Virus record (IMG/VR): IMGVR_UViG_3300021401_000005
Coordinates: 1 to 64,000 of that record
DNA from: a virus
Lineage: Duplodnaviria; Caudoviricetes
DNA length: 64,000 nucleotides
Reading direction: 5' to 3' (one strand)
Within the stretch, counting starts at the first letter, position 1. Each line of letters opens with the position of its first letter. The translations under genes and the position numbers were made by a program. Of the stretch, positions 2,492 to 50,671 are shown piece after piece. The notes below the pieces were generated by a model that did no database searches, was not told where the DNA came from, and saw nothing but the letters and a program-made list of their open reading frames with translations.

Positions 2492-2587
2492 TGCGTGGCT
2501 GGGCGGGGCGAGGCGATGCCATGCGCGGCGACGCTAGGCTCGGCAAGGCGATCCAAGGCGGGGCTGGGGTCTTTGGACTCCAGCCCC
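2492..2587 (+). ncRNA. orphan GGC-NN pentamer-repeat unit with 3' hairpin (putative guide RNA)
   Basis: 15 in-register pentamers (2492-2566), then stem GGGGCTGGGGTC/GACTCCAGCCCC (2560-2587); intergenic after the terL stop. Confidence 0.7.
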
Positions 2588-2706
2588 ATTCATAGGCTGG
2601 AGGACCGGACGGTGCTAGCGACCTTGCGGACGCCCGTTGATTAAGCGGGGCTCCCGCCGATCCTCCGAGGCGACTGTACGCCTCCATCGTGGGAGAAAAA
2701 AGCGAC

Positions 2707-2976: not shown

Positions 2977-3076
2977 GGCGGTGTTTGCGGCGCACTGTCT
3001 TCACGATCTAGCCTGGACGTCGTTGGGCGAGGACGCGCTGTTCGCGTTCATCGATCGCCTGGAGGCGTATGACTAG
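2864..3076 (+). CDS. hypothetical protein
   Basis: ORF MGLWALIRMGW..; overlaps the previous ORF, so only one may be real in the overlap. Confidence 0.45.
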   Translation: MGLWALIRMGWQRRQRRLDMEVLWPACLEVSPDLDRAKAVFAAHCLHDLAWTSLGEDALFAFIDRLEAYD

Positions 3077-3339
3077 AGCGGATCGATATTGATGCTGTTC
3101 GCCTGCATGAGCCAGATGTCGATCTTCTGGCGGTCGTCCAGCTCGTCGACCATGCGGCGCAGCCGTTCGAGCACGCGCGCCTCGGCGCCTGGGGCGGCCT
3201 GCCAGGGTCCGGCGATCCATTGTCTTAGGTAACCCCTGATCGCCGCGACCTCGGCCGGCGTCAGTTCGTCCCGCGCGAGATAGGCCTCGACTGCTGGCCT
3301 CAAGACCCCGGACTGCTCGAACATCCAAAAACCGGGCAT
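3073..3339 (-). CDS. hypothetical protein
   Basis: 88-aa helical-looking ORF divergent from the RAMP operon. Confidence 0.6.
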   Translation of the reverse strand: MPGFWMFEQSGVLRPAVEAYLARDELTPAEVAAIRGYLRQWIAGPWQAAPGAEARVLERLRRMVDELDDRQKIDIWLMQANSINIDPL

Positions 3340-3348
3340 GTCGGTAGA

Positions 3349-3374
3349 TTGACCTAGTTTTGCATTTCATGCAA
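3349..3374. promoter_or_regulatory. putative -35 (TTGACC) plus palindromic operator TTGCA-N5-TGCAA
   Basis: TTGACC 3349-3354; TTGCA-tttca-TGCAA 3360-3374, a motif recurring at five other intergenic sites. Confidence 0.65.
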
Positions 3375-3382
3375 GTTGTGCT

Positions 3383-3442
3383 GGCGCTGCTAGGCTTGGC
3401 CGGGCCATGCTGGGCATGGCGATGCGGCGCGCGGCAAGGCAA
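3383..3442 (+). repeat. GGC-NN pentamer tract in the 5' leader of the RAMP gene
   Basis: 12 in-register pentamers running into the RBS AAGGAGAG (3441-3448). Confidence 0.85.
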
Positions 3443-3455
3443 GGAGAGTCGAAAA

Positions 3456-4049
3456 ATGGAAATACTGGTGCATATCAGCGGCGTTACACCGCTGATCCTC
3501 AATCGATTCAGCGACGAAGCAGCTCTAATTGCGAGCGGCGGAACGCGCGGCGCAAGCGCGGGTGCCGAACGCAAGACCCCGCTCGATATTTGCGAATCGA
3601 AGCTCTACCGGGGGCTCGATGGTAGGCTGATAATCCCGCAACCCAACTTGTTGCGCAGCCTTGTGGACGGTGGCCGATTTCACAAAGTCGGAAAGAAGCA
3701 AGTCACGACCAAAGAAGAGTCGATGATGTTCGCGTGCGTGGACATCGAGGGCGCCGAAATCGCCCTGATCCACAAACAGCCGTGGAAAGTCGACACGAGA
3801 CCTGTTGTGATTCCTAGCACAAAAGGGAGAATTTTGGCCCATCGGCCGATGTTCGATGATTGGAGGTTGGAATTTGTCGTCAGCCTCGACACGTCTATTT
3901 TAGGACCTGGGATTTTTCGATCGATTGTCGACGACGCCGGGAAGCGGGTGGGGCTTGGTGACTTCCGCCCAGCGCGGAAAGGCCCGTACGGGCGCTATCG
4001 CGTCGATCATTGGGCGGTCGTCGAACAGGCAATCGCCGAAGCCGCTTAG
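3456..4049 (+). CDS. stand-alone Cas7/RAMP-fold protein (197 aa), putative effector of the GGC-NN RNAs
   Basis: RBS plus ATG 3456; ILVHISGVTPLILNR first strand, IIPQPNLLRSL helix, C-terminal glycine loop AGKRVGLGDFRPARKGPYGRY, all RAMP/Cas7 hallmarks. Confidence 0.8.
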   Translation: MEILVHISGVTPLILNRFSDEAALIASGGTRGASAGAERKTPLDICESKLYRGLDGRLIIPQPNLLRSLVDGGRFHKVGKKQVTTKEESMMFACVDIEGAEIALIHKQPWKVDTRPVVIPSTKGRILAHRPMFDDWRLEFVVSLDTSILGPGIFRSIVDDAGKRVGLGDFRPARKGPYGRYRVDHWAVVEQAIAEAA

Positions 4050-4492
4050 CGTGGCGCGGCGGGGCATGGCACGGCACGGCGGCGCGGGGCGAAGCGACGC
4101 GAGGATATTTTATTGATTAGGCGAGGCTGGGCTAGGCTTGGCGAGGCGGCGCGATGCAGGGCTCGGCACGGCGCGGCTCGGCGTTGCACGGCGAGGTGGG
4201 GCGCGGCACGGCAGGGCGCGGGCAGGGCTGGGCAAGGCTACGCTTTGCGAAGCGCGGCGCGGCAAGGCCCGGTTTGGCACGGCATGGCTTGGCGTGGCTT
4301 GGCGTGGCGTGGCTCGGCAGGGCATGGCGAGGCACGGCGATGCGCGGCGACGCTAGGCTCGGCAAGGCGAGGATATTTTATTGATTGAGCTTAGCGAGGC
4401 GCGGCATGGCCCTGCACGGCGCGGCGTTTCAGGGCTTGGTTGGGCTAGGCTTTGCGATGCAAGGCTAGGCACGGGCGGGCAAGGCGAGGCAA
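4043..4492 (+). ncRNA. array of GGC-NN pentamer units separated by a 20-bp direct repeat (putative multi-guide RNA)
   Basis: Pentamer runs 4043-4102 (12), 4120-4219 (20), 4221-4370 (30), 4388-4492 (21); GCGAGGATATTTTATTGATT at 4099-4118 and 4367-4386. Confidence 0.8.
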
Positions 4493-4496
4493 GGGA

Positions 4497-4516
4497 GGGG
4501 CGGCTTCGGCCGCCCC
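4497..4516 (+). terminator. GC hairpin with UUCG loop closing the array
   Basis: GGGGCGGC-TTCG-GCCGCCCC; no U-tract, so it may be a 3' stabilising hairpin rather than an intrinsic terminator. Confidence 0.6.
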
Positions 4517-4520
4517 CTGG

Positions 4521-4736
4521 TCAGGTTTCCGGAACCTTGGTTGTCGCTGCCCGATAGGTAAAACCGCGTCCTTCTGGGGGTGGCTCTGGGCGCGGCACGA
4601 TGTACGCGCCGCGCGTTTCGTCGACTATTCGCCGGACCATATCGGACAGCGATGTCGCGCGCTTGGCTGCTTCCTGCTCAAGCCAGCCAATGGCTTCATC
4701 TGAGAATATGACGTTGAGTCTGTTTCCGCGTGCCAT
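4521..4736 (-). CDS. ribbon-helix-helix (CopG-like) DNA-binding protein
   Basis: RLNVIFSDEAIGWLEQEAAKRATSLSDMVRRIVD fits the RHH pattern. Confidence 0.7.
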   Translation of the reverse strand: MARGNRLNVIFSDEAIGWLEQEAAKRATSLSDMVRRIVDETRGAYIVPRPEPPPEGRGFTYRAATTKVPET

Positions 4737-4841
4737 ATCAGCATTCTAATGGCCGTGTGCCGGTCTCCGCAAGGCACGTGGAGATTATTTCCACAAGAAA
4801 AGCACTTGACATGGCGGCAGGCGTGCCTAAATCTGCACGCC

Positions 4842-5762
4842 ATGGAATACCCCGTTCATCCCGCCTGCGCTCTTTGGCCCCGCCCGTCCGACGAGGAGGT
4901 GATGGCGCTCGCTGAGAGCATCAGGAGGGAGGGGCTCCACAATCCGATCTGGCTCTACGAGGGGGCGATCCTCGACGGCAAGACGCGCTTTGAGGCTTGC
5001 GGGATCGCGAGCGTCGAGCCGCGCTTCGAGATCTTCAGCGGCGATGACCCGGTTAGATTTACGATTAGCCAGAATCGTTTGCGGCGGCATATGCAGATCG
5101 GAGAATTGTTGCTCATCGTTGCGGCGCTTTGTAAGTTGCGGCAACATCTTCATGGAAGAAATAAGCACTTAAGCAGGCAAGGCCTCGCGAGACCTTGCCT
5201 CCAAGAAGAGAAGACCGCAGAAGAATTGGCTAAAGAAGCTGGCATTGGAAGATCGAACATCGTCGCAGCCAAGACAGTTCTTCAAAATGGGGAAGAAAAT
5301 GTCGTTGAAATGGTTCGTGCCGGTGCTGTTGGGGCGCAAAGCGCCGCTCGGTTCGTCAGGAATACGCCGCGCGAACAGCAACGCAACGCTACTGTGAACG
5401 ACGTAAAGCAGGCTCGCCATCGCGAGAACGATGGTCGTCGCCCCAAAAGAGACGTCCCGGTCTGGGGCAAACACAATCGCCCCGTCATCATTCCATCCAA
5501 GAAAACGCTGGCAGAGAGGAAGAAGCCACAACCCATGCTCACGATCCCTTCGCGGGACCTGACGGAGAGACTCGCTCCAATCATCAAGACGCTCAAACAG
5601 CAAAGCAAATGCAGCATGGCCACAGTGTCGTTTACGACGCTGGCCGTCCTAGCAGGCGAGCTGGAGCATCTCGTTGAGGAATGGACGAGTGGCGGAACGG
5701 GATCTGAGCGCACCCCAAATTCCGCCAACTCAATCGCGCTTAACGAAAGGAAAGCATTATGA
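4842..5762 (+). CDS. ParB/Srx N-terminal domain protein
   Basis: HPACALWP..LAESIRREGLHNPIWLYEGAILDGKTRFEAC..ISQNRLRRH, then an HTH-like segment. Confidence 0.75.
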   Translation: MEYPVHPACALWPRPSDEEVMALAESIRREGLHNPIWLYEGAILDGKTRFEACGIASVEPRFEIFSGDDPVRFTISQNRLRRHMQIGELLLIVAALCKLRQHLHGRNKHLSRQGLARPCLQEEKTAEELAKEAGIGRSNIVAAKTVLQNGEENVVEMVRAGAVGAQSAARFVRNTPREQQRNATVNDVKQARHRENDGRRPKRDVPVWGKHNRPVIIPSKKTLAERKKPQPMLTIPSRDLTERLAPIIKTLKQQSKCSMATVSFTTLAVLAGELEHLVEEWTSGGTGSERTPNSANSIALNERKAL

Positions 5763-6640
5763 GTGCTTTCACTTTGGAGAAGACCGAGACGCTGGCAGTC
5801 ACCAGCGAACTCGCTATCAAGGTCGCTACAATGACCGGCTCGGACACGGAGCGGGTCCTCGATGAGAAACGTGTAGACTACCTTCGCGGTCAAGTCATGG
5901 CCGGATTGGCGACGCCCTTTAGCTGGGCGTTTGCGATTCGTCCTGACGGGACCATCGTTCGCGTGAACGGACAGCACTCAAGCCATATGCTGTCCAGGCT
6001 CGATGGCGATATGCCGGAAGGCCTTACGGCGGTCATCTCGACCTATAAAGTCGACGATCGAGATGGCGAGGTCGCGCTGTTTCGACAGTTCGATCCTCGA
6101 CGCTCGTCGCGCTCGATTGCCGACGTCGCTGGTGCGTTTCAGGGCGTGGTTCCGCAACTGCGCAATGTGCCACGGGCATCAGCCAAAAAGGCGATTGAGG
6201 GGATCGCTTGGCATCTCAAGTACGTCGTTGGCTCGCCCGTGTCGAAGGGCGACGATGTCTACGACCTGTTCCATCGCCCTGAATACACTGAGTATCTGGT
6301 GTGGGTGGGTCACATGCTGTCCGACAAGACGCCGGAGCTGAAGAGGGCTTCGGTCCTGGCGGCGGTCTTCGCCACTTACGAGCGAGATCCGGGAGAGGCC
6401 AAGACGTGGTGGCATCAAGTGGCGCGCGGCGGCGAGGAGTTCGCTGATAAAGCGCCATCGACGGTCCTCGATAAATGGTTGCAGGAAGAGCGCAACCCCA
6501 AGCCCCGGCGGAAAACCGCCCTCTCGGACGCCAACCTCTATCAGGGTTGCGTGTTCGCCTGGAACGCCCAGCGCGATGGCAAGGGGACGATCGAGCGGAT
6601 CAATTACGACACCAAGAAGGGCTACTTCGAGGTCGCGTGA
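5759..6640 (+). CDS. ParB/Srx-like (DGQHR-like) protein
   Basis: VRVNGQHS motif; ATGA overlap with the upstream gene. Confidence 0.6.
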   Translation: MSAFTLEKTETLAVTSELAIKVATMTGSDTERVLDEKRVDYLRGQVMAGLATPFSWAFAIRPDGTIVRVNGQHSSHMLSRLDGDMPEGLTAVISTYKVDDRDGEVALFRQFDPRRSSRSIADVAGAFQGVVPQLRNVPRASAKKAIEGIAWHLKYVVGSPVSKGDDVYDLFHRPEYTEYLVWVGHMLSDKTPELKRASVLAAVFATYERDPGEAKTWWHQVARGGEEFADKAPSTVLDKWLQEERNPKPRRKTALSDANLYQGCVFAWNAQRDGKGTIERINYDTKKGYFEVA

Positions 6641-6930: not shown

Positions 6931-7650
6931 ATGTCCGCCCGCGCGAGCAATGGTGGCTCGCACACTGACGAGGAATGGCGCGCGCAGCTGCGGCGCCAAT
7001 TTCACCGCTGCAATAATCCGTTCTGCATGTGCGATCTGCGGGCGGACGGCGTCGTTGTTCACCGAGATCACCTGATCCCGGTGACCAGCGGCGGCAAAGA
7101 CGACATTTCGAACATTCGAGCGATGTGCGCCCCGTGCAATTTGCGCAAGGGCGCGAAGGCGTGGCGCGTTTTCCTGGCCGAGGAACGCCTCGCGAGAACG
7201 TCCCGAAAGAATCGCGTGACGTTCCACCCCGTCTGGCCGATCGGCTCCGTCGTGCTGTTCACCGTAGGCCTGATCAAAGGCCTCGCATTCGGTCCGCTGG
7301 CGATTGTGTTCCTCGGCTTCGCCTGCTTGGCCTTATTCGGCCTTGGTTGGGTCTCCAGGCTGCTCAATGGTCTCTTAAGCCTCTGCCTCGTGCCGCTGAT
7401 CAGGTGGGCGTTGCGCGGCCCCCACGTCCAGCGCGTCGGCGTCGCGCTCGGCGCTTTGGTTATGGTGGTGCTGATGACCGGGGGAGACGCGCGGGTGAAC
7501 GACACTGGCCATGGCATGCGCCCCAAGCCGAGGCTTGAGGCCGGCCCCATCGCGATTTGGCGCGCGCCCGCGCTGCCGGCGAAAATACCGTGGCCGCCTA
7601 AGCGACCGTGGTATCTCGATCGACCATTCGGGACACGACCGACCGGGTGA
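6931..7650 (+). CDS. HNH endonuclease domain fused to transmembrane helices
   Basis: CNNPFC..HRDHLIPVTSGGKDDISNIRAMCAPCNLRKG followed by about 3 hydrophobic segments. Confidence 0.75.
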   Translation: MSARASNGGSHTDEEWRAQLRRQFHRCNNPFCMCDLRADGVVVHRDHLIPVTSGGKDDISNIRAMCAPCNLRKGAKAWRVFLAEERLARTSRKNRVTFHPVWPIGSVVLFTVGLIKGLAFGPLAIVFLGFACLALFGLGWVSRLLNGLLSLCLVPLIRWALRGPHVQRVGVALGALVMVVLMTGGDARVNDTGHGMRPKPRLEAGPIAIWRAPALPAKIPWPPKRPWYLDRPFGTRPTG

Positions 7651-8263
7651 ATGGCGTGCCGGTCGAACTGACATAGCCCAGGTTCGCCAGCGCCACCCGC
7701 ACCCCGTTCAGCGACTTGCCAGACTGGCGCAGTTCGCGCGCCATCGCGACCATCGCCGGGTCCATTTCGGTCCAGCTCTTGCGCCCCTCGCATTTGCCGG
7801 TCGAAGCCTTCTTGCGCGCCCTCGCCGCCTTGAGCTTGGCGACCGTCAATGCCCGGTCGAACTCGGCCACCGCGCCCAGGATCTGGCGGACCAGGGACGC
7901 CGTCGGCGTGTCCTCGACGAAGCTCGACGGCGAATCGACGGCGATCAGCTCGACGCCGAGATCCTGAAGCATTTTCCAGCCGGTCTCCTGCACCATGAGA
8001 TCGCGGGCGAAGCGGTTGGCGGTCTCGACGAGGATCGTCCGCACGCCGTTGCTAGCGATGCGTTGGAGCATGAGGCTGAAGCCCTCGCGCTGGGTGACCG
8101 GATCGGCGCCGGAGACGGCGGCGTCGTAGTATTCGCCGACGATCTCGATGTCGTTGCGCGCCGCATAGTCGCGGACGGCCTTCTCCTGGCGGGGGAGGCT
8201 GTCTTTGTCCGCGCCGACGTTGGTGGCCGACGAGGTTCTGAAGTAGGCGACGGCGTGTTTCAT
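7598..8263 (-). CDS. small serine recombinase (resolvase/invertase family)
   Basis: AYFRTSS catalytic Ser, D..VSG, ETANRFARD, GAVAEFDR, C-terminal HTH; RBS AGGAG before ATG 8263. Confidence 0.9.
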   Translation of the reverse strand: MKHAVAYFRTSSATNVGADKDSLPRQEKAVRDYAARNDIEIVGEYYDAAVSGADPVTQREGFSLMLQRIASNGVRTILVETANRFARDLMVQETGWKMLQDLGVELIAVDSPSSFVEDTPTASLVRQILGAVAEFDRALTVAKLKAARARKKASTGKCEGRKSWTEMDPAMVAMARELRQSGKSLNGVRVALANLGYVSSTGTPFTRSVVSRMVDRDTTVA

Positions 8264-8345
8264 GGTAGACTCCTGTTGGGACCTCGGTCCCTTCCTGTTG
8301 GCGATAGGTGGGCCGCCGCGCCTCCGCAGCGCGGCGGCCTTTTCG

Positions 8346-8534
8346 TTAGGTCGTCCTGCGCACGCTGACGCGGATTTTGCCGTCGGCGAACCTCGACTTG
8401 CCGGACTTGTTGAGGAAGGCCTTGCGGCCGAGGATCTCGGCGAGGCTGCGAACGTCGATCTCGACATCGACGTCGAACTCGACCAGCTCACCCTTGCGGG
8501 TGCGCCCTCGGATACCCTTTACAATCGTGTTCAT
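8346..8534 (-). CDS. hypothetical protein
   Basis: RBS AAGGAG then MNTIVKGIRG..; co-oriented with the recombinase. Confidence 0.6.
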   Translation of the reverse strand: MNTIVKGIRGRTRKGELVEFDVDVEIDVRSLAEILGRKAFLNKSGKSRFADGKIRVSVRRTT

Positions 8535-14284: not shown

Positions 14285-16743
14285 TGGTTGACGATCTCGG
14301 CGACTACGACGTCGACCCGGTCGAGGGAAATCCCTTTGGCTCGATGGCGTCGTCGCCGAACGATTTCGACGTCGCGCCGGTCGATCACGATCCTTTCGCT
14401 GGCGCTGGCGGAACCCCGGCGCCAGACCAGTTCGAGCTAGCGTCGAGGCAGCCCGAAGCCACGCCGTCGAGCGCTGGCGGTCCGCCCTTGGACCCTGGCG
14501 ATCGGCAAGACCTGATCCGGACTGTCTACGGCGAAGCCGCCGGCGAGCCCGCGCTCGGCCAAGCGGCAATCGCCCACGCCATCCTCAACCGCGTCCGAGC
14601 TGGTGGCTACGGCCAGGGCATTGCTGGCGTCGTCCACGCCCCGGCTGCGGGCGTGAACCCGAAGTTCGGGTATCATGAGTTCAGCCCCTGGAACACGGGC
14701 CGCGCCACGGAAGGCAATCCCGTCGCGCAGAACCTCTCGCCGAAAGACCCGGCTTATGCGCGGATCGGCGACATCGTCGACAAGTCCTATTCGGGTCTCA
14801 TACCCGATCCGACGCACGGCGCGACGCACTATTATGGGCGAATGCCGCACCCGCCGTCATGGGCGCCGCCGCTCGCCGCGCTGAACAAGGTCAGGATCGG
14901 CGGCCAGACCTTCGTCGGTGGCGCGGAAGGCCCAGGTCGAACGCCGATCCAGACTGCCGGCGGCTACGCGGGCGGTGGCCCGGTGCAGATGAACGCGGAC
15001 TTGCAGCGGCGTCTTGCGATGATAACGCGGCCTCGACACGGGTTCGCCGACGGTGGCGATCCGGACCAGCCCGCGCCAGATGATGCGGCTCCCGCCATCA
15101 TGGGCCACGTCGCAGCGACGCCAGACCCCAATCAGCCAATGACGGCGCGCTACCTCGAAACCCGTCCGCAGGGATCGATCGCGCCTTACGACCCGTCATG
15201 GGGCGAGCGGATTCAGCAGGGCGTCAGCGAAGCGGGGCAGGCGCTCGGTCAGCCTGCTCAAGGTGCTGAGCGCCTAGGCGAGGCGGTGCGGACCGGCGCG
15301 GAGATGGTGCCCATCTCCGGCAACATCCTGTCTGGCAACGAAGCCTATCGCGACGTCCAGTCTGGCAATTACGGCTCTGCGGCGCTGAGCACGCTCGCCG
15401 CCTTTCCGATCCCCGGCGCAACCGCCGAGGAGGGCGCAACGCGCAGTGTCTTGCGTCACGCTGACGAGGCTTTCCCCGAGGGGCGGATCGCCACGGCGGT
15501 GCCGTCCAACAAGGCGCTCGTCGATTCGGCGCACGCCTCGAACGATCGGACCATCAGCTTCGACACCATGCGAGCCGACCCTGTCATGTACGGCAAGACT
15601 GCCGATCTCATTCGCAGCATGCCCGACATCCAGCTCCCGCCGAATGCCACCGACGACGAGGTGCATCAGGCGTTCATCGCTCACGCCAAGAGCAACATTT
15701 TGGCGCTGCACGACGCTGTCCCTGACGACATCCGAGGCGGCTCGCAACAGTGGTACGACGGGGCCAACCAGATCGCGGGCGATCGGGCGCAGCGGTTCAA
15801 TCGCCCGCTCGAAAACGTCGCGGGCGTCTATGCCGCGCTCTCCCCGAAAATGGACTGGTTCAAGAACGTCAGCCTCGGCGACCGGCTGATGGACATCATG
15901 CACAACCAGAAATGGTCTGGCTTTACTCCCGAGATGGATGCCTGGGTCGCCAATCGCTACGGCGGCAGCCAAGTGCCGGCCGACGTCAAGGCCGCCACTG
16001 CTTATGCGAACCTCAAGGCCAAGATGGGCCAAGGCCAGATGCTCGGCGATCTCTCTGACCCGATCGAGCAAGCGCACTTCGTCCGCGCCTATGACGAAGC
16101 GCACAACCCTCGCGGCTACAACATCGTCAATCCCGATGGCTCGTTCGCAGGCCCAGCCATGACCGGGAAAGGCGAGGAAGGCGAAGTCGGTTGGGCCGGG
16201 TTCAACGCGATGGCGAACGCCATCAAGTCATTCAACGCACAAGACATGACGACGGTCTCGAAAGCGATGGGCGACCGGCACAAGGTGCGCTCGTTCTACA
16301 ACAACATCGTCGCGCCGAACTCGCTCGCTGGCGATGTCACTGCCGACACGCACGCTATCGCCGCCTCGCACTTGCGACCCTTCTCGCTCGCTGACGAAGA
16401 GGTGACTAACGGTCTTGGAAGCACTGGACCGAAGTCAGGCGAAACCGGCGCCAAAGGGCTCTATGGACTCTACGCCGATGCTTATCGGCAGGCGGCGGCC
16501 GAGCGCGGGATTCTACCGCGCCAGATGCAATCGATCACTTGGGAGGCGCTGCGCGGCCTGTGGACCCCGGCAGAGAAGCGCAGCGCTTCCATCAAGCAGG
16601 GGGTCGAGGATTCGTGGAACGCCTACGGGGGGCGCAACGGCCTGACACTGCCGCAAGTCCAACAGCGGCTGATCGGAACGCCGTCGCGCATCAGGGCACC
16701 GTCTTGGCACACGGGCGCCGCCGGGGAGGAGCTGGAGCCCTAG
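14284..16743 (+). CDS. virion protein: SleB/Hydrolase_2 cell-wall hydrolase plus C-terminal DUF7178-like domain
   Basis: RTVYGEAAGE..AIAHAILNRV..DPTHGATHYY; later WYDGA..AGVYAALSP..KVRSFYNNI..VTADTH..QMQSITW. Confidence 0.75.
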   Translation: MVDDLGDYDVDPVEGNPFGSMASSPNDFDVAPVDHDPFAGAGGTPAPDQFELASRQPEATPSSAGGPPLDPGDRQDLIRTVYGEAAGEPALGQAAIAHAILNRVRAGGYGQGIAGVVHAPAAGVNPKFGYHEFSPWNTGRATEGNPVAQNLSPKDPAYARIGDIVDKSYSGLIPDPTHGATHYYGRMPHPPSWAPPLAALNKVRIGGQTFVGGAEGPGRTPIQTAGGYAGGGPVQMNADLQRRLAMITRPRHGFADGGDPDQPAPDDAAPAIMGHVAATPDPNQPMTARYLETRPQGSIAPYDPSWGERIQQGVSEAGQALGQPAQGAERLGEAVRTGAEMVPISGNILSGNEAYRDVQSGNYGSAALSTLAAFPIPGATAEEGATRSVLRHADEAFPEGRIATAVPSNKALVDSAHASNDRTISFDTMRADPVMYGKTADLIRSMPDIQLPPNATDDEVHQAFIAHAKSNILALHDAVPDDIRGGSQQWYDGANQIAGDRAQRFNRPLENVAGVYAALSPKMDWFKNVSLGDRLMDIMHNQKWSGFTPEMDAWVANRYGGSQVPADVKAATAYANLKAKMGQGQMLGDLSDPIEQAHFVRAYDEAHNPRGYNIVNPDGSFAGPAMTGKGEEGEVGWAGFNAMANAIKSFNAQDMTTVSKAMGDRHKVRSFYNNIVAPNSLAGDVTADTHAIAASHLRPFSLADEEVTNGLGSTGPKSGETGAKGLYGLYADAYRQAAAERGILPRQMQSITWEALRGLWTPAEKRSASIKQGVEDSWNAYGGRNGLTLPQVQQRLIGTPSRIRAPSWHTGAAGEELEP

Positions 16744-16955
16744 CCCCGCTCCACCCGCTGCCAAGGCTCCGGCAGCTCGGCCTCGTCCTCGGCCGTCCAC
16801 GGCTTCGGCGTATCGCCGCCCCAGTTCAGGTCGATCCACGTCTGCCGGGTGAGCGGCAGGCCGTTCTTGATCATGTAGGCCAGCATCGGGTTGTGCTGGG
16901 CCGCGTGGAGCAGCTCCGGGTCGACTCGTCGTTGGGTCTGCTGGATTTGGGCCAT
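16740..16955 (-). CDS. small hypothetical protein
   Basis: RBS AGGAGG; lies just downstream of the orphan GGC-NN unit on the minus strand. Confidence 0.7.
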   Translation of the reverse strand: MAQIQQTQRRVDPELLHAAQHNPMLAYMIKNGLPLTRQTWIDLNWGGDTPKPWTAEDEAELPEPWQRVERG

Positions 16956-16974
16956 CCCAGCCTCCTATTGGAAT

Positions 16975-17069
16975 GGGGCGGGACCTAAGCCCCGCCCCCC
17001 GCGCCTGCCTTGCCGTGCCATGCCGGACCGAGTCCAGCCTCGCCCAGCCAAGCCGCGCCTTGCCACGCC
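16975..17069 (-). ncRNA. orphan GGC-NN unit with 3' hairpin
   Basis: Minus strand: 12 in-register pentamers from 17069, GGCAGGCGC, then GGGGCGGGG-CTTAGG-TCCCGCCCC. Confidence 0.72.
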
Positions 17070-17175: not shown

Positions 17176-18222
17176 ATGGGCCAATATTCACAGAAGTCGT
17201 TCACGACCGACAAATTGAAAAAATTTGCGGTCAGTGGCAACAACGGCAGCAACGGCGACAAAGCCGAGGCGGCCGACGATTACGGGCGGAAAGCCGCCAA
17301 ATCGAGCGATTCTTCGGCCTTCGCCACGGGCGGGGCGGCGAAGGCGCCATCGCTTGGTCGCGCCGGCAGAGCTGGCGGCGGCCGGGTTGCGCGCGCCGAG
17401 GGCGGCAGGACGCGCGACCTCAGCAAGCTCACCGACGGCGGCCCGGAATCCTATGGCGACCGGCCTCTCATTCGCGCCAAGGGCGGCCGAATCGGGAAGC
17501 AGCTCGGCGGCGCTCTGCCACAAGGGACGCCCCCTGGCTTGGCCGCGCCGCCCCCGGCGGGCCAGATCCCTGGCCTGCCTGGGCTGGGGCGCAAGAAGGG
17601 CGGCCGGGTCGGGCGCTGGAAGGGCGGCCCGTCGTATGACCGGCTCGGCCAGAAAGACGCTATGGCCTCGGACGCCCCCGGTTACGGGGAGGACATCCCT
17701 GGTGGCCGAGAATACTACGACTTCATTCGCGGTGGTCTCGGCACCTCGAAGATCGGAGCGCCGCGAGGCCAAGGCGGCATTGGCTCCGATGAGACCGCTG
17801 AGCCAACGGACCAGCGTCGTGGCGGCCGGGTCGGCCGCGCGCATGGCGGACGCACCAAGGGCAAGGGCAAGACCGTCGTCAACGTCATCGTCGGCGGCCA
17901 CGGCGATCAGCAGCAGCCCCCGCCGCCGCCCGTCATGCCGCATCCAGCGATGCCGCCGCCTCCACCTCCGCCGCAGGCCGCGCCACCGAAGCCGCCGATG
18001 CCGATGGGCATGCCTATGATGCCTCCCGGCGCCATGGGCGGCGCTCCGCCGATGGGCATGCCGCCCCCAGGAGGCGGAGGCATGCCTCCTGGGATGCCGC
18101 CTCCCGGCATGGGCCGCGCTCACGGCGGCCGGATCAACGAGAGATTCGGCGCGGCGTCCGGCCAGGGCCGGATGGAGAAGGCGCGTCGCGAGAACGATGG
18201 AAAGGTGAAGTTGGCCGAATGA
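17176..18222 (+). CDS. disordered basic Gly/Pro-rich protein with about 10 xxxGG motifs
   Basis: FATGG, RAGGG, RAEGG, RAKGG, RKKGG, RWKGG, RAHGG x2; located in the head gene cluster. Confidence 0.7.
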   Translation: MGQYSQKSFTTDKLKKFAVSGNNGSNGDKAEAADDYGRKAAKSSDSSAFATGGAAKAPSLGRAGRAGGGRVARAEGGRTRDLSKLTDGGPESYGDRPLIRAKGGRIGKQLGGALPQGTPPGLAAPPPAGQIPGLPGLGRKKGGRVGRWKGGPSYDRLGQKDAMASDAPGYGEDIPGGREYYDFIRGGLGTSKIGAPRGQGGIGSDETAEPTDQRRGGRVGRAHGGRTKGKGKTVVNVIVGGHGDQQQPPPPPVMPHPAMPPPPPPPQAAPPKPPMPMGMPMMPPGAMGGAPPMGMPPPGGGGMPPGMPPPGMGRAHGGRINERFGAASGQGRMEKARRENDGKVKLAE

Positions 18223-19068: not shown

Positions 19069-20129
19069 TGCCACGAGAGACGGACGACCCCGAGCAGGCG
19101 ACGCACTTCGGCGCGCTGATCGACGAACCGGACGACGATCTCTCGCCGGAGGAGCGATTAGAGCCGAAAACCGTCGTTGTCGGCGGCGCGCCGGTCCGCA
19201 AGGGCGACAAAAAGCCCACGCCGGCCGAGGTAGACTCGCCGATGCGGGCGTCGCCGGAGCCCCCGCCGGAGGATGAGGGCGTCCTTGAGCTGAAGCGCCA
19301 GCTCGCCAACCAGCAAAGTATGACGGCGCGCGCGGCCCAAGTGGCCCAGGCCGAGCACCAGCGGCGCATCCAGGCCGAACGCGGCCTAACCCAGTCGAAT
19401 GTGCAGATGGTCGACGCCGCGATCGAGGCGGCGAAGCGCGATTCCGAACAGGCGCGAGCCTACTTCCAGGGCGCGCTCGATCGCGGCGACCACAAGGGCG
19501 CGTCCGAGGCCCAGGTCCTGCTCTCCGACGCCCGAGCCAACCTTCTGCGGCTGATGGAGATGCGCGAAGGCGTCGTCGCCGAGGCGCAGCAGCAGCCACA
19601 GCAGCAGCCGCAGCCGAGGCAGGCGCCGCAACCGCAGCGCCAGTACACGGACCCCAGCCAGCTGATGCAGGCCAACGTCCAAAACCTCTCCGGCCACCTC
19701 GACCGAACCGGCTTCCCGAAGAGCGCTGCGTGGATCAGGTCCCACCCCGAGGCGGTCAAGGATCAGGCGGCGATCGACTCGGTCGACGGCGCGCACAACG
19801 CTGCCGTCAAGACGTTCAAATTGATCCCCGAAACAGACGCCTACTTCGACAAAATCGAGGAGCTGCTTGGCGCAGGAGAAGACCGACAGATGGGACCACA
19901 GACGCGCCAGGGCCAGCGCCAGATGGGCCAGTTGCAGCGAAACATGGCCGCGCCGGCCCGCGCCGAAGCGCCAAGCTTGCGCACCGGCCGCACGCGCGGC
20001 ACGGCGGTCGCGCTCACCGCTCGCCAGCGTGAGCATGCCCGCGACGTCCTCGGCATGAGCGACGACGAGTACGCGGCCGAGCTGCTCGACGCTCAGTCGC
20101 GAGGCAAAATGTTGGGAGCCCGCTCATGA
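19068..20129 (+). CDS. putative capsid scaffolding protein
   Basis: Acidic N-terminus, coiled coil, C-terminal VALTARQREHARDVLGMSDDEYA; upstream of the capsid genes. Confidence 0.7.
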   Translation: MPRETDDPEQATHFGALIDEPDDDLSPEERLEPKTVVVGGAPVRKGDKKPTPAEVDSPMRASPEPPPEDEGVLELKRQLANQQSMTARAAQVAQAEHQRRIQAERGLTQSNVQMVDAAIEAAKRDSEQARAYFQGALDRGDHKGASEAQVLLSDARANLLRLMEMREGVVAEAQQQPQQQPQPRQAPQPQRQYTDPSQLMQANVQNLSGHLDRTGFPKSAAWIRSHPEAVKDQAAIDSVDGAHNAAVKTFKLIPETDAYFDKIEELLGAGEDRQMGPQTRQGQRQMGQLQRNMAAPARAEAPSLRTGRTRGTAVALTARQREHARDVLGMSDDEYAAELLDAQSRGKMLGARS

Positions 20130-21554: not shown

Positions 21555-22469
21555 ATGGCTGTCTCAGTCGCCCAGGCTTATGACCTCCTGTTTCCCGGCC
21601 TCCGAAAGGTGGCGGGGCAGTACAAGGACATCGACCGGATTTATCCGAAAATCTATAAGGTCGATAAATCCAACATGTCCGTGGAGCGCACCGCCTCGAT
21701 GCGCTTCCTCGGCCTCGCTGCACTGAAGAACGAGGGCGGACCGACCACTTTCGATAATCAGGCCGGCGAGAGGTACGTCTATAACCAGTACCACAAGGAA
21801 ATCGGCCTCGGGTACGCCTTCACCCGAAAGATGATCGACGACAATCTGTACAAGAGACAATGGCAGCCATCGAACCTCGGGCTGCAAAAGTCTTTCAATC
21901 AGACCAAGGAAATCTACGGGGCTTATCCCCTCAACAACGCGACGGTTTACGACCCCACGATCTTAGGGGATCAGCAACCGCTTTGCTCGCTCAATCATCC
22001 TATCGACACGGGCGTCGTTCCCAACCGCTTCGCCGTCGACATGGATCTGAACGAGGCCTCGCTGCTCAGCGCCCAGGCCTCGATTCGCGGCTTGTTCCGC
22101 GACAACGCCGGCCTCCGCATGCAGGCCCGCGCCCGCAAGCTGGTCGTCCCCATCGCGCTCGAACCGATCGCCATCCGGCTGCTAAGAACAGTCTTGCGTC
22201 CTGGCACCAGCGACAATGACGTCAACGCAATTCCGGAGACCTCTGGAGGTATTCCCGATGGTCATCTGGTGCATGATTACCTGACATCGCCGACAGCTTG
22301 GTTCGTAATGACGGATCAAGAAGGCTTGCTATACTTGCAGCGAGTGTCATTTGAGCTTGATATGCAAGTGGACTTTACTAGCGACAACTTGCTTGTGAAG
22401 GGTTACGAGCGCTATAGCTTCGGCTATTTCGACTTCAGAGCGATCTGGGGTTCGTTCCCTACCCAATAA
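21555..22469 (+). CDS. major capsid protein
   Basis: RBS GAGGAGG; LLFPGL, KNEGG, LCSLNHP, RKLVVP, YLTSPTAWF, YERYSFGYFDFRAIWGS. Confidence 0.88.
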   Translation: MAVSVAQAYDLLFPGLRKVAGQYKDIDRIYPKIYKVDKSNMSVERTASMRFLGLAALKNEGGPTTFDNQAGERYVYNQYHKEIGLGYAFTRKMIDDNLYKRQWQPSNLGLQKSFNQTKEIYGAYPLNNATVYDPTILGDQQPLCSLNHPIDTGVVPNRFAVDMDLNEASLLSAQASIRGLFRDNAGLRMQARARKLVVPIALEPIAIRLLRTVLRPGTSDNDVNAIPETSGGIPDGHLVHDYLTSPTAWFVMTDQEGLLYLQRVSFELDMQVDFTSDNLLVKGYERYSFGYFDFRAIWGSFPTQ

Positions 22470-27051: not shown

Positions 27052-29643
27052 ATGAACAAGCGCGTCCTGCCTCCGACCGTTCCCGATCCGGCTGCGCCGT
27101 CGTCGCCGATCGAAGGCGTGCCTGGACCCGCTACCTGGGACCCTGGCCAAGCGCCGCAGAACACGACGCCGATCTCGGAGCTGCCGCTAGCCGGCGCGCT
27201 CCAGGGTCCCGAATTGATGGCGGTGGTTCAGGGCGGGATCACTGCTCAGACATCGATTGCGCAGCTCATTCGGTTCGTCGAAATGCCGACGCCGATCGCG
27301 GTGGGGCTGGGCGGCACGGGCACCGCGTCTCTCCCGCCGAACAGCGTGCTTCTCGGCGGCGTGACCCAAGTCGGCGTGATCTTACCGCAGACGAACGGCT
27401 CGGTGCTCGTCAGCGGCGTGGGGCCGCATTGGACGCCGGCCGGCGCTGCCGGCCAGTTTTTGCAAAGCCAGGGCGCGGGGAACGATCCGATCTGGTCGGC
27501 GATAGCGGGGATTCCCGGGCCTGCGGGACCGACTGGGCCGCAGGGGGCGACCGGCGCGCCAGGGCCGCAAGGTTCTCCGGGTCTTGCGGGGCCGCCAGGA
27601 GCGCAAGGACTGCCCGGGCCGCAGGGCTCGACCGGCTTGACCGGCGCGCAAGGGCCGACCGGCGCGCAAGGACCGCCAGGGGCCACCGGGCCGCAGGGGC
27701 CGACTGGGCCGGAGGGCGCCGATGGTCAGAGCGCGGTCATCATCGGCGAGTTCGGCGCATCCAAGACGCCGGCCAATCTGCCAGCCAACGGTATCATTCC
27801 GGCGAACTGGGACGCTGCTGGCGTTCCGCCTGCGCAAATTACGATGGGGCTCAGCCAAGCTCTCGTTTACACGGTCAATGAGAACATCTGGGTCTATGTC
27901 GGCACGAGCGTTGTCTCGGCCGGATGGATTGACATTGGAGCTGCGGAGGGTCCTGCGGGGCCGACCGGGCCGCAGGGGCCGGCCGGCGCGACTGGGTCGA
28001 CTGGGCCGCAGGGGGCGACTGGGCCGCAGGGGGCGACTGGGCCGACGGGACCTACCGGGCCGACAGGTCCGCAAGGGCCGACCGCTGTGTCAACCAATGC
28101 GGGCAATCAGGCCACGCTTGGGACCGATAGCCTGACGTATGTTCCCCTCGGCGCCGGGGTTAACCCAGGCGCCGCTACGCCGCTCATGGACGGGACGGCG
28201 TCGGTCGGGTCGTCAGCGCTCTATTCGAGACAGGATCACGTTCACCCGAGCGATACATCGCGCTACGCCGCTTCCAACCCGTCCGGCTTCCAGACGGCTG
28301 CGCAAGTCACAGCTTCGCTCGGCAACTATCTGCCGCTGTCGGGCGGCACGGTCTCGGGTGGCACCGCCTTCACCGCCGGGATCATTCTCGCAGGCCCCAC
28401 CAATCTCAACCTTGGCGGCGGCTCGGCGGGACAGGTTCTAACCGCCACTGGCACCGGCGCCCTGCTGTCGTGGGGCGCTGTTGTGCCCGCCGCCTCGACC
28501 ACCACGCCGTTGGTGGCTAGTGGGGCGGGGGCGATCGGCTCCTTGGCCACCTCTTTCGCGCTCGCCGATCATGTCCACCCAGCGCAGACCGTTTCGGCCG
28601 GCGATACTACGGACATCGCTTATTTCGGCGATGGGTCGGACGGCGCGGTCAGCATCACCACCACGGTCGCACTGACCCGCGACATGTACTATTCGAGCCT
28701 GACGATCAGCGGCGCGGGCATCCTGCAAACAAATGGTTGGCGGGTGTTTGTTTCTGGCGTGCTCGACCTTTCATCGGCGGGCGCGGGCGCGATTTTCCCT
28801 ACAACCTTACCGTCGACTGTTGGAGGCAACGGCGGCAGTCCGACAGGGGGGACCGGTGGGCTGAATAGGCAAGGACAATGGTTCACAAGTGTGTCGGGCG
28901 GTGTGGGTGGCGCAGGTTCCAGCACCGCTAACGGCAACGGTACTGCGGGAGGCTTGGTTACCCCGCCAAATAGCATCACAGGTTGTCTCGGCGGCGCGGG
29001 CGGCGTTGGCGGCGTTGGCGGATCACCTGGGATCGGGGGGGCTCCAGGGAACGGTGGCGCCATGAACTACACTTTGGGTCGCCTTCGTTATCCAACGGTT
29101 TTCCCCCTTTATCCCATCAGCAGCAGCCCCGCCCCTACGTATTGTGGCGGCCTTCCCGGTTCGGGTGGCGGCGGGGGCGGCAGCCCCAATGGTGTATCCA
29201 GTCAAGGGGGCGGAGGGGGCGGAGGGGGCGCGGGTGGCGTTCTCTTCATCTGGGCGCGCACCATCAATCGCGGCGTAGGGACAGCGGCGGGAGTGATCAA
29301 TCTGTCGGGTTTCAATGGCGGCAACGGTGGCGCTGTCGCCAATAGCGGTGGAGGCGGCGGAGGGGGTGGAGGCGGTGGCGGGGTTTATCTCGTTTTCCGG
29401 TTCTTGACCGGGACGCCTGTAGCCAATGCGATCAATCTGTCGGGCGGCAATGGCGGCAACGCCGGAACCGGGACTGCTGCTGCTCAAGGGCAAGGCGGTG
29501 CGGGCGGCAGCGCTGGGACTTTGACGATGTGCAATATCGCTGCTGACACGGTGACGGCGCAAATCGGATCGCCGGGGAGTCCGCCAACCGGCACCGGCAG
29601 TGTGACCGGCGGCTTGGGCGGCGTGGGCTTGTTCACCCTATGA
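27052..29643 (+). CDS. tail fibre with collagen-like and glycine-rich domains
   Basis: Two (G-X-Y)n runs, [14 protein letters not shown] repeats, YFGDGSDG, poly-Gly C-terminus. Confidence 0.85.
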
Positions 29644-35366: not shown

Positions 35367-38300
35367 ATGGGCTCGAAGGGCGGCACCACTCAGCAGACAT
35401 CGACGCAATCCTCGTCGGGTCCCCCGCCCCAGGTCCTGGCCGAGTATCAAGGCCTCGTCGACCGCGCGACCAACGTCGCGAACCAACCCTATCAGCCCTA
35501 CCAGGGCGAACAGGTCGCCCCGCTGGCGTCCCAAACGCTTCAGGGGCTTGGCCAGATCGGGCAGTACGCCAACGCGGCCCAACTTCCCTTATTTGGAGCG
35601 AGCGCGGGCACCTCCCAGGCAATGCAATCGGCGACGGACGAAGCTCTGGGCTCGGCTGGCGCAGCATCGGGCATGACTGGGAATGTGGCGAACGCGGCCA
35701 TGGGCATGACCGAAGCCGCCGCCGCGCCCGTCAACGCGGAGCAATTCCAGGGCCAAAGTTCGCTCCAGCCTTTTATGAACCCGTACACGTCCGATGTTGT
35801 CCAGGCGACCCAGAACGAGTTCAATAATCAGAACCAACAGCAGGCACAGTTTCTCAACAGCGCGAACATAAGTTCAGGCGCGTTCGGCGGCGACAGGGCT
35901 GGCGTCAGCCAGGGGATTCTGGCCAATCAGCAGCAGCTCGCCGAAGCGCCGACGATCGCCGGCTTGAACCAAGCCAACTTCACCCAGGCCATGCAGGACT
36001 GGCAGCAGCAGCAAGGGGTGAACCTCGGGGCAGCGCAAGCGAATCGCAGCGCCTTGATGGGCGCCGCGAACCAGTACGGAAACCTCGGCCTGACTGCCGC
36101 CAACCAGATTGGGAACCTCGGCCTAAACGCCGCGCAAGAAGTCGGGAATGTCGGCCTAGCCGGGTCGAACCAGATGGGGCAGATCGGCCTGTCTGAGCAG
36201 CAAGCAGGGCTTCAGGGCGGCCAAGCGCAGATCCAAGCCGGCACGATCCCGCAGACCGAACAGCAGGCGATCGATACCGCCGCCCAGAACATGTACCAGA
36301 CTGGGCAATCGTATCCGTTCACCACCACCGGCTGGCTCGGCAACATCATCGAGGGAACCGGAAGCCTCTCCGGCGGCCAGGGCTCCAGCACCACGACCTC
36401 TCCTGGGCCGAACGCGATCACTCAGGGGCTCGGCGCGGCCTCGCAAGGCGTTGGGCTCCTGGGCAGCATAATGTCGCTCTCCGACGAGCGCGCGAAGGAG
36501 AACATCGAGCCGATCGGCGAGACCTACGACAATCAGAAAATCTACAGGTACAACTTCAAGGGTGACCCGCGCACCCAGATCGGCTTGCTGGCGCAAGAAG
36601 AGGCCTATCACCATCCAGGCAGCGTCCAGCGGATCGGCATGGGCGATCTGCTTGGCATCGACTACGGCGGCGCGACCGAAGACGCGGCCGATCGCGGTCA
36701 CTTTGCCTCTGGCGGCGCGCCGCCGGCGAGCATGGCGGGGCTGGGCGCCATGGGCGGGATGGGCGGCGGCGGCGCGATGTCTCCGGGCTCGGATCTCATG
36801 TTTAGCGGCGATCCTGGCGCGCGGATGGGCATGGGCACGTTCGCTCTCATGGGCGGCTCCAATGTCCGTCCGGAACCGACTACGGCCATGTCGCGTCCGC
36901 CTGGGTGGGAGCCTCCATATCAGCCTGCGCCGCAGGCGCCTCCGCCGCAGCAGAATTTGCCACAGTCTTCGTTTCGCCAGTTGCAGCAGTATGGTCTTAG
37001 CGGAGGCGAGGCCCGCCCGAGCTTCCAAGGCGGCGGCACGGCCATCACTACCCCAGAGGAAGCCATTCCGATCGGCACGAGCGGCCAGTCCAGCTACACC
37101 CAAGGCTGGCAGCCGGGGGATCTCCTGAACCCTGCCGCTGGTGTATCCGAGGCGTTGTTCGGCGAGGCGACGGCGGGGTCGAAGACCCCCTACTACGGGC
37201 TGGATCTCGACCAGCTGAACGCGATCGGCGGCGGGCAATGGATGCCGCCGGACACCAACGCGCCGCAGCCGGACTATGGGAACCTCCAGAACTCGCCGCA
37301 GTTCGGCGCGGCCGAGAAGTCGCTCTCGGGCCTGTTCGGCCCCGGCTACACGCCGGGATCGACCGGCGCTCCGCCTGCGACATCTCCGGTGGCCGCCGCC
37401 GCCGCCAAGCCCGCCGCGCAACAGCAACCAGCGGGGCATTGGCAATCAGTTGGCGGGACGACCACTGGCGGTGCAGCCGGGGGCGAAAACCTGGGCATGG
37501 GCGCTCAGATCGGAAACGTCTTTCAAAATGAATGGGTGCCCGACCCGGCCGTGTCGACCGTAGCGGCCACCGCCGCGCCGGGGCTCGCGACGGGAAAAGC
37601 AGACGGCGGAGGAGTGAGCATGAGATCCGGCTTCCAGCGCGGCGGCTTCCCGCAATTCACCACCTACCAGCCGACCGCGAACCCGGCGCGCACCCCGCCG
37701 ACCTATACCGCGCTCGATCTCTCGCACATGTTCGGCGGCGGGCAGCAGCCGCAGCAAGCGCCGCGCGCCATCCAGATCCAGCGCCAGCTCGGGCAGGCGC
37801 GCGCCCAGGCGGCGGCCCAGCGTGGCATCGTGCGGCCTCGCGTCATCGCCCCGGACCCGGTGACCGGCCAGCATCACGACATCACCCCGCCCGACCATCC
37901 TTCGACCGCGCGCTATCCCGGCTGGCCGACTCCTGGGCCGGGAAACGCAACCCCTGATGGCTTGCCGATGAGGCCGCCAGCGCGGGTGCCGCTCCAGACC
38001 TCGCCGAACGCCTTTCCTGGGGGCGTGGCCAATCCGACCATTCCGTCTTCGCGCGGCGGCGGCATGGGCTTCCCGAGTTTGGGCATGGTGCCCGCAGCGG
38101 CGGCTGGCACGCCACCGGGACCGCTGGCCTCGGCGTCGTGGTGGGGCGGTTTGCCGAAGGAGGAACTGCCTTCGAGATCTCGTGGCCTGACAACGGTCGC
38201 GCCGCCGCTTGATGGCACGCAGGAATGGAACAAGCCTTCGGCCGAGGTCGAGAGCCCCCGCGAGAGCGCCGAATTTTCAGAGGCGGGGCGACCGCTGATG

Positions 38301-50168: not shown

Positions 50169-50310
50169 AGGAGGGGCGGGTTAGGTGCCCGCCCCTCCTA
50201 AATGCACGGCCTGCCACGCCTGCCGTGCCTTGCCGAGCGACGCCGCGCCTAACCGCGCCATGCCGCGCCGAGCCCAGCTCTGCCATGCCTGCCACAGCTT
50301 ATGCCTTACC
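50169..50310 (-). ncRNA. orphan GGC-NN unit with 3' hairpin at the end of the early operon
   Basis: Minus strand: starts at the stop of 50306-50671, 13 in-register pentamers flanked by GGCA tetramers, then the 12-bp stem AGGAGGGGCGGG/CCCGCCCCTCCT (50169-50199). Confidence 0.7.
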
Positions 50311-50671
50311 CTTCAAGCGAAATCAACATGTCCGCGATGCTGTAGGCCGTGTCCGCGTCCTTCGTCGACCAGTCGCTGATCGGGCTCTCGCCCCGCCGAT
50401 GGATCGCCAGCGCGACCATGAGAATGGCATCTCGCCGCGCCTCGGAGCGCTTCTTGGCATTGCCGTTGGCGGCGGCGGCGATGCCGTGGTCTGCGTCGCC
50501 CAGGATCTCCTTTTCGCTTGGCGGGATGGCGCCGAGCATGCGCTTGAAGGCGGGGATCTCGCGCGTGGGCTCGCGCGTCGGGGTTGCGGGGATGCCGACG
50601 CCGGCGCCGGCGCGAACCTCGGCTTGTCCTTCGATGGTGGGTCGCCACGTCTGGTTCAACTCGTCACTCAT
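50306..50671 (-). CDS. hypothetical protein
   Basis: RBS AAGGAG; ATGA coupling. Confidence 0.6.
   Translation of the reverse strand: MSDELNQTWRPTIEGQAEVRAGAGVGIPATPTREPTREIPAFKRMLGAIPPSEKEILGDADHGIAAAANGNAKKRSEARRDAILMVALAIHRRGESPISDWSTKDADTAYSIADMLISLEG

Follow-up and report, generated by a model that had tools for sequence, protein, structure and literature searches.

Organization of the vipr locus

Bases 1-64,000 of the 73,765-base virus record IMGVR_UViG_3300021401_000005 (Duplodnaviria; Caudoviricetes), here called the window because they make up the whole stretch analysed, carry a tract of short repeats at 4043-4492. The tract begins on the stop codon of an open reading frame (ORF) of the same strand. 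The evidence described below leaves little doubt that it is the main vrRNA (guide-RNA) array of a VIPR system in a soil phage, with the ORF as vipr. VIPR is a CRISPR-like system of RNA-guided gene silencing that was described in 2026, and phages use it against competing mobile elements (bioRxiv 10.64898/2026.04.26.720920, 10.64898/2026.04.26.720927, 10.64898/2026.10.15.759431). In these preprints, Vipr is a minimal RAMP protein, the guides are built of GGY/NN pentamers with one protomer per GGY, and the NN bases pair with double-stranded DNA at two positions out of three (bioRxiv 10.64898/2026.04.26.720920, 10.64898/2026.04.26.720927). The features of the locus are as follows.

3456-4049, plus strand: vipr, 197 amino acids, RAMP-family guide-binding protein with a profile match to SUSP1 Vipr
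4043-4102, plus strand: segment 1, a 12-unit putative vrRNA overlapping the vipr stop codon; units 1-8 are the guide core against rivals' vipr
4099-4118, plus strand: separator 1, AT-rich and identical to separator 2; its non-repeat part is 4103-4119 (17 nt), phase +2
4120-4370, plus strand: segment 2, 20 + 30 units with a slip at 4220; module mosaic
4367-4386, plus strand: separator 2, in the loop of a hairpin predicted from the flanking units
4388-4492, plus strand: segment 3, 21 units
4497-4520, plus strand: terminal G+C hairpin that closes the array, putatively serving as 3' tail and/or terminator, immediately next to the stop codon of the convergent RHH gene 4521-4736

The tract consists of 83 phased (G)GCNN pentamers with a period of 5 nt, in three segments parted by two 20-bp AT-rich separators. 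G fills position 2 in 99% of the units and position 1 in 77%, and C fills position 3 in 95% (n=83); 63 units carry GGY and 78 carry xGC. Phased arrays were counted with at least 6 of 8 units in phased GGY as the criterion. Ten such stretches are present in the real 73.8-kb genome vs none in each of 20 base shuffles. No Rfam family was found within the window.

A sequence-only reading of the same DNA had described this form, and its description held on rechecking. Exact copies of the 20-mer separator are at 4099-4118 and 4367-4386 and nowhere else, the single 1-nt phase slip at 4220 was seen again, and the NN strings read by hand are those of the machine parse for all four stretches (12, 20, 30 and 21 units). 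The segments end in GA or AA units followed by GGA or GGG. The NN positions are diverse, with 14 dinucleotides in use, and rich in A/T (54% A+T vs 36.5% in the genome). Within them, C is scarce at the first variable position (4% at N4 vs 29% at N5 over 4043-4492), which may reflect target choice or a constraint beside the fixed pyrimidine.

The adjoining gene encodes a Vipr protein

The listed ORF starts at 3360. This start would read through another pentamer array, and it is therefore most likely a spurious 5' extension across the leader array, the ATG at 3456 being the probable true start. The protein as a single sequence matches PDB entry 36pp_D, 'SUSP1 Vipr protein', with E=5e-5 (phmmer), and a profile of 41 homologues matches the same chain over residues 67-187 with E=3e-10. 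In these alignments D169/F170/R171 stand at the G-loop residues D177/W178/R179 of SUSP1, with Phe (F170) in the place of Trp (W178), and are invariant or at least 90% conserved in the 41 homologues. D177, W178 and R179, together with the thumb arginine R138, are named as the GG contacts in the SUSP1 structure work (bioRxiv 10.64898/2026.04.26.720927). Counting by hand along the alignment, R130 may be the counterpart of R138. H17 has no conserved counterpart in the homologue alignment.

An AF2 model of the protein (pLDDT 79) shows a beta-alpha-beta core with a beta-hairpin at 111-133. The top 50 Foldseek matches are Csm3, Cas7 and Cas7-11 chains (best E about 1e-5), from a structure library that predates the Vipr entry. 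The family comprises 952 proteins at E<=0.001. Vipr matched no Pfam family, and no homologue was found in PLSDB plasmids. Among isolated phages it matched only at 24-32% identity, in Gordonia and Listonella phages, and the region 3300-5800 showed no DNA similarity to isolated phages. GGY arrays lie beside vipr, always on the vipr strand, in 25 of 27 loci of IMG/VR relatives; in one of the two array-less loci the sequence ends 44 bases after vipr.

Further arrays in the genome

Four more arrays lie outside 4043-4492, with their pentamer units at 2492-2551 (+), 3383-3442 (+), about 17005-17069 (-) and about 50220-50289 (-). With their tails, and with their positions relative to genes and untranslated regions (UTRs), they are the following.

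2492-2600, plus strand: upA, upstream putative vrRNA of 12 units (2492-2551) with a hairpin tail, directly after terL
3383-3442, plus strand: leader guide, 12 units in the 5' UTR of vipr, running into the Shine-Dalgarno sequence
16959-17069, minus strand: soloB (solo vrRNA B), 13 units (17005-17069) ending in a hairpin tail, as an insertion within the 5' UTR of the leftward gene 16740-16955
50170-50289, minus strand: soloC (solo vrRNA C), 14 units (50220-50289) with a hairpin tail, in the 3' UTR of gene 50306-50671

Folds were predicted for the tails of upA (-32 kcal/mol, z -2.7) and soloC (z -4.6). Two relatives represented by whole phages, G001 and G004, likewise have scattered arrays far from vipr (for example G004:13895-13957, 20042-20069 and 21625-21657).

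The NN positions are read with one skipped base

NN strings of all phased arrays were compared with all fetched DNA, with the arrays masked and with gaps of 0-3 bases between successive NN. Guides with shuffled unit order served as the control, and scores of at least 15 were taken as strong. In the main set (344 arrays from 115 sources, 1.42 Mb) the reading that skips one base (skip-1) gave 148 strong matches vs 1, 6 and 4 in three shuffles. Skipping 0, 2 or 3 bases gave 5, 4 and 5. In a smaller first set the skip-1 reading gave 39 matches and the shuffles none, while skips of 0 and 2 gave 0 and 3. Redundant loci raise the real and the shuffled counts alike. The proposal that NN carries the information and the fixed GGC is scaffold thus passed the gapped-pattern comparison with shuffles, for the one-base gap (NN-x) only. 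In all five decoded guides the skipped base falls on the third (wobble) position of the codon. One strong match fell outside the one-base rule: 2138-2182 of locus L039 against 46-79 of the same contig, 18/18 with a two-base gap.

Guides match genes of related phages and mismatch the phage's own copies

Targets were found for the segment 1 array and for all four further arrays. Units 1-8 of segment 1 (4043-4082) match 16/16 to the minus strand of vipr in four loci whose Vipr is 91% identical, and in L093 and L108, with 14/14 in several more loci. The site is the conserved thumb-tip motif of vipr. In the phage's own vipr (3801-3823) the match is 14/16: Ser (AGC) stands where the targets have Ala (GCN), and one whole unit is lost. 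Units 1-9 of the leader guide match 18/18 to a paralogue of the small gene 3073-3339. This paralogue is present in the sister phage L077/L035, where it lies downstream of the array (flanks at 96% nucleotide identity). The phage's own site, 3209-3234, scores 14/18 and is recoded through Leu CTA and Arg AGA codons.

The two solo guides gave the longest matches. Units 1-10 of soloB match 20/20 in all three IMG/VR seed matches, at the start codon and first ten codons of the gene for a G/P-rich protein, and the phage's own site at 17176-17204 scores 17/20. Units 1-11 of soloC match 22/22 to a small gene in all seven IMG/VR seed matches, which vary only at the skipped bases; the own site at 50322-50353 scores 17/22. 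Units 2-8 of upA match 14/14, in wobble phase, to terL of a 91% relative, and the own terL site (2182-2204) scores 13/16 with a Gln to Met change. By score the upA match is weak, and only its place and phase add weight to it. The phage's own copies of three of the targets, and a site in its genome that is itself matched from outside, are listed here.

3073-3339, minus strand: small gene, 88 amino acids, no family; own mismatched copy of the leader guide target
17176-18222, plus strand: own copy of the soloB target, 348 amino acids, tblastn 59.8% identity; it starts 107 bp from the guide
50306-50671, minus strand: own copy of the soloC target, 121 amino acids, no family, tblastn 75% identity; it ends 17 bp before the guide
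7902-7936, minus strand: site matched by a guide of a 91% relative, in the serine recombinase gene 7598-8491 (resolvase domain E=6e-27)

The match at this last site is 23/24 in wobble phase, and a guide of L108 matches the phage's vipr 15/16. None of the matches reaches into the last 3-4 units of a guide (GA, AA and similar), and these units recur at guide ends. In the phage's own genome the best skip-1 scores equal those of shuffles, that is, no self-targets were found.

For the remaining arrays the scans gave no comparable result. A 9-unit module of segment 2b (the second stretch of segment 2) had 12 exact matches in IMG/VR, which is chance level. Ten of these lie in contigs of 27-41% G+C (6 in giant-virus bins); 11 of the 12 do not extend, and one extends by a single unit (20/20, L166). 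The variable part of segment 2a gave two matches in IMG/VR, again at chance level, one of them 21/22 and out of wobble phase. The segment 3 seed also gave two, one of them 20/20 and out of wobble phase, and neither has a homologue here. The first nine units of upA gave three IMG/VR matches at chance level that do not extend. Among 75 metagenome loci of Vipr relatives no new target was found for segments 2 and 3.

Separators, tails and the array mosaic

The separator is present in all three distinct genomes of the 91% clade with 1-3 changes, and nowhere else in the fetched DNA. Neighbouring guides differ among these genomes while the separator stays. It always follows a constant GGCGAGG end, and 17 nt of each copy here are off-phase. 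Separator 1 has no significant fold (z -0.5). Separator 2 lies in a hairpin loop, where the units before it pair with the start of segment 3 (4351-4403, about 15 pairs; -18.9 kcal/mol, z -2.1); nothing comparable occurs at separator 1. The ends of the arrays are of two kinds. upA, soloB, soloC and segment 3 end in G+C hairpin tails, while segments 1 and 2 end in the unstructured separator. The segment 3 hairpin (centroid fold) has an exact 22-nt copy in L076, and by eye L035 appears to have at the same place a stem with letters changed on both sides. No T-run terminator was called at the array end, 4497-4520.

In the sequence-only reading the separators were processing sites that release individual guides. 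The three segments do not correspond to three guides: the matched cores are 7-11 units long, segment 2 has 50 units, and the arrays are mosaics of modules. Relatives with 91%-identical Vipr share only modules of 20-134 nt in their arrays. Between this phage and L077, 134 nt are shared in place and 56 nt elsewhere, and the rest is unshared. Because the matched cores are this short and its modules are shared piecemeal, segment 2 probably holds several guides. It is made of modules joined without a separator, and the slip at 4220 is one junction. 'Staggered' arrays with 1-nt overlaps are mentioned in the first preprint (bioRxiv 10.64898/2026.04.26.720920). In one contig from a soil run, 2515 in the upstream array is joined to 4191 in segment 2; the 1675 bases from one to the other are missing, and 17 other letters stand in their place. 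Such a join could be either an inter-array recombination in a vipr-less strain or an assembly artefact of shared modules.

Strain polymorphism and the position of guides

In L077 and in strain X3 the leader guide is shorter by precisely its first seven units (35 nt), with the five constant units kept. This is a case of a whole guide being gained or lost in a fixed slot. Strain X8 has the targeted version of the small gene, with 10 differences within 3220-3244 vs 20 in the other approximately 790 bp of the contig. Across the array, the soil contigs, which come from four runs, are broken into too many pieces to show where one guide ends and the next begins.

For each of the five decoded guides, the homologous site in the phage itself is 33-290 bp away. 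Two of these guides, soloB and soloC, had their targets found by database-wide scans without positional bias. In the family, the record that carries the guide also contains a homologue of the target site for 25 of 29 distinct strongly matching guides. In 17 of the 25 cases this homologue is within 500 bp (median 316 bp), a count biased by the fact that most loci were fetched around vipr. Term searches of the main texts of two of the preprints gave no statement on such a placement of guides beside the own allele. We tentatively read the guides as allele-specific cassettes, each kept close to the mismatched version, in the phage itself, of a gene that it would silence in rivals, and judge this reading hardly less likely to be right than wrong. 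Adjacency may also arise if new guides are made locally from the neighbouring gene.

Genome context

The window encodes small and large terminases, portal, major head, tail fibre and ejection proteins, and the terminase genes lie 1.5 kb upstream of the array. Downstream, the array adjoins the convergent RHH-like gene at 4521-4736 (Pfam E=0.009) and a ParB-like gene at 4842-5762 (PHROG E=3e-12). The RHH gene is found in 1 of 80 relatives' loci and the ParB-like gene in none of 80. L077, 96% identical on either flank, lacks the genes that follow the array at 4521-6640 (RHH-like, ParB-like and the ORF 5759-6640) and has others in this place, including the paralogue targeted by the leader guide. 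Judged from this exchange, 4521-6640 is a swappable cargo slot adjoining the array. In other clades a 527-amino-acid gene directly follows vipr and array (21 of 81 loci: L104 2052-3635 and 20 others) and is absent near vipr here. By eye its N-terminus resembles an SF2 helicase, and it is a candidate vap, the VIPR accessory gene, of those clades. Elsewhere in the window, the 2089-amino-acid ORF at 35367-41636 (ejection-protein-like N-terminus and S74 chaperone domain) and the 863-amino-acid collagen-repeat tail fibre at 27052-29643 are large but ordinary for a phage.

Comparison with known systems

The idea of a guide array with an NN code is already in print as VIPR. The identification of this locus as VIPR rests on vipr lying upstream on the same strand, the GGY/NN form of the units, the skip-1 matches, the wobble position of the skipped base and the mismatches of the phage's own copies. 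Set beside the type II VIPR of Escherichia phage SUSP1 and of a P. fulva prophage, as far as the consulted parts of the preprints describe them, the system is likewise phage-borne and has a Vipr RAMP protein with a conserved G-loop (Asp-aromatic-Arg). GGY/NN vrRNAs lie on both sides of vipr, a 1-nt skip falls on the wobble base, targets are on either strand, self-targeting is absent and some guides are directed against other VIPR systems. The two differ in that the proteins are only distantly alike (profile E=3e-10). A 17-20-nt unstructured AT-rich linker is found here and a pseudoknot tail of about 40 nt there, and uninterrupted tracts run to 21 and 50 units here and to the reported 9-16 there. 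In this phage, moreover, no vap was recognised and extra guides are scattered in UTRs of the genome.

Solo vrRNAs of SUSP1-family phages and F5 satellites (bioRxiv 10.64898/2026.10.15.759431) are also stand-alone and away from vipr. There too guides are aimed at relatives' vipr, targets are wobble-aligned and the match to self is below that to non-self. By comparison with those, the guides here belong to a VIPR-positive phage, and each is placed next to a diverged copy, in the phage itself, of the gene that it targets. Their targets include terL and a virion-module gene, where the published ones target satellite recombinases.

The array also resembles class 1 CRISPR systems with a Cas7-family backbone: it lies beside a RAMP protein whose best structural matches are Csm3 and Cas7. 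Unlike CRISPR, it is read at two bases in five, and the window lacks direct repeats of 23-50 bp, contiguous spacers and further cas genes. A CRISPR array was rejected on its period of 5 nt, the lack of any cas family among the 28 window proteins scanned, and the lack of an Rfam family. The idea that the repeats were a centromere acting as DNA, or an RNA decoy wrapped around a ring protein, was dropped after the Vipr match.

Proposed mechanism and alternative explanations

By analogy with the SUSP1 and P. fulva experiments, the array would be transcribed together with vipr. One Vipr protomer would bind each GGC and flip it out so that NN is exposed, and the resulting filament would pair NN with two of three bases of the double-stranded target and block transcription. 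We propose further that the separators, at 17-20 nt without GGY for Vipr, end one filament and start the next, and that they may be cut, while naked, by a host RNase specific for single-stranded AU, which we take to be of the RNase E type. Cutting at these predicted processing sites is plausible because they are the only stretches without GGY for Vipr and are AU-rich and single-stranded. The last 3-4 guide units (GGCAA GGCGA and the like) would form a constant, non-pairing 3' end. The purpose would be competition with related phages, with segment 1 silencing rivals' vipr and the other guides silencing their terL, a virion-module gene and two small genes.

Several points weigh against identifying the locus as VIPR or against parts of this scheme. 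Transcription, processing and Vipr binding are predictions for this phage. No vap accessory gene was recognised beside vipr here, and in the 76 viral loci outside the closest clade each of the phage's vipr neighbours recurs at most once. Only 5 of the 8 arrays were matched to targets, and the 71 units of segments 2 and 3, which make up most of the tract, have none. Three of the five targets came from a search space centred on vipr loci. The matches of segment 1 and upA are short (8 and 7 units), and that of upA is weak by score, since 14/14 also occurs in 2 of 5 shuffle sets. The phage's own sites match at 77-88% over the core, near the 80% target threshold of the preprint, so that self-discrimination rests on one to three codons.

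The same observations were weighed under other explanations. Short iterated repeats are typical of type Ib/II centromeres, and with RHH-like and ParB-like genes adjoining the array and terminase genes 1.5 kb upstream, the repeats might act as DNA, either as a plasmid-type centromere for the RHH/ParB-like protein or as a packaging site. This is very improbable. Relatives' loci hardly ever have those two genes, and 25 of 27 have strand-locked arrays beside vipr; the near-identical L077 keeps the array with other genes in place of RHH and ParB; and a binding site has no reason to vary in NN between 91%-identical relatives or to decode to rivals' coding DNA. A guide function for the RNA leaves room for a different use, in which the guides mainly act in cis on the adjoining own genes and the perfect matches in relatives are ancestral. 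Vipr, for example, would then be autoregulated through the leader array at the ribosome-binding site of vipr. The distance of 33-290 bp between every decoded guide and its own homologous site fits such regulation, as do the leader array abutting the vipr Shine-Dalgarno sequence and the high own-site matches (13/16 to 17/20). We nevertheless regard it as unlikely. The guides are perfect to rivals and imperfect to self in five of five cases, with the own mismatches at positions that change the amino acid or recode Leu or Arg. X8 has its differences concentrated at the target site (10 in 25 bp vs 20 in about 790 bp), and the seven soloC targets vary only at skipped bases. In addition, disturbed NN pairing abolished silencing in the experiments of the first preprint (bioRxiv 10.64898/2026.04.26.720920).

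If the guides do silence rivals, the separators could still be something other than cleavage sites: the clade's vrRNA 3' tail or cap (a handle for Vipr or another factor), or filament stops in an uncut transcript. This is a possibility of some substance, if the less favoured one. SUSP1 vrRNAs are described as ending in an invariant tail of about 40 nt (bioRxiv 10.64898/2026.04.26.720920). The separator here likewise has a constant sequence and a constant length (17 nt off-phase) and comes after GGCGAGG in every case, and other vrRNAs of the phage end in hairpin tails. The separator, however, has no predicted structure of its own and is absent beyond the 91% clade.

Significance

The VIPR code is confirmed independently in a distant clade of uncultured soil phages, by sequence statistics alone. 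The guides identified here are aimed at essential genes of near relatives: vipr, the large terminase and a virion-module protein. Three leads follow. The short unstructured AT-rich linker may be an alternative punctuation of vrRNA arrays. The 5' UTR of vipr holds a guide slot with a clean 35-nt presence/absence polymorphism. The guides are placed beside the phage's own resistant alleles; linkage is our own interpretation of this placement, and self-regulation or local origin is also possible. Local origin of guides would bear on how VIPR acquires them. If the linkage interpretation is true, guide and resistant allele would be inherited together like poison and antidote, the own allele would be favoured in mixed infection, and a recombinant acquiring the guide alone, and not the allele, would be self-silencing. 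If the adjacency rule is general, targets would be predictable from position alone and the guides would be linked selfish cassettes.

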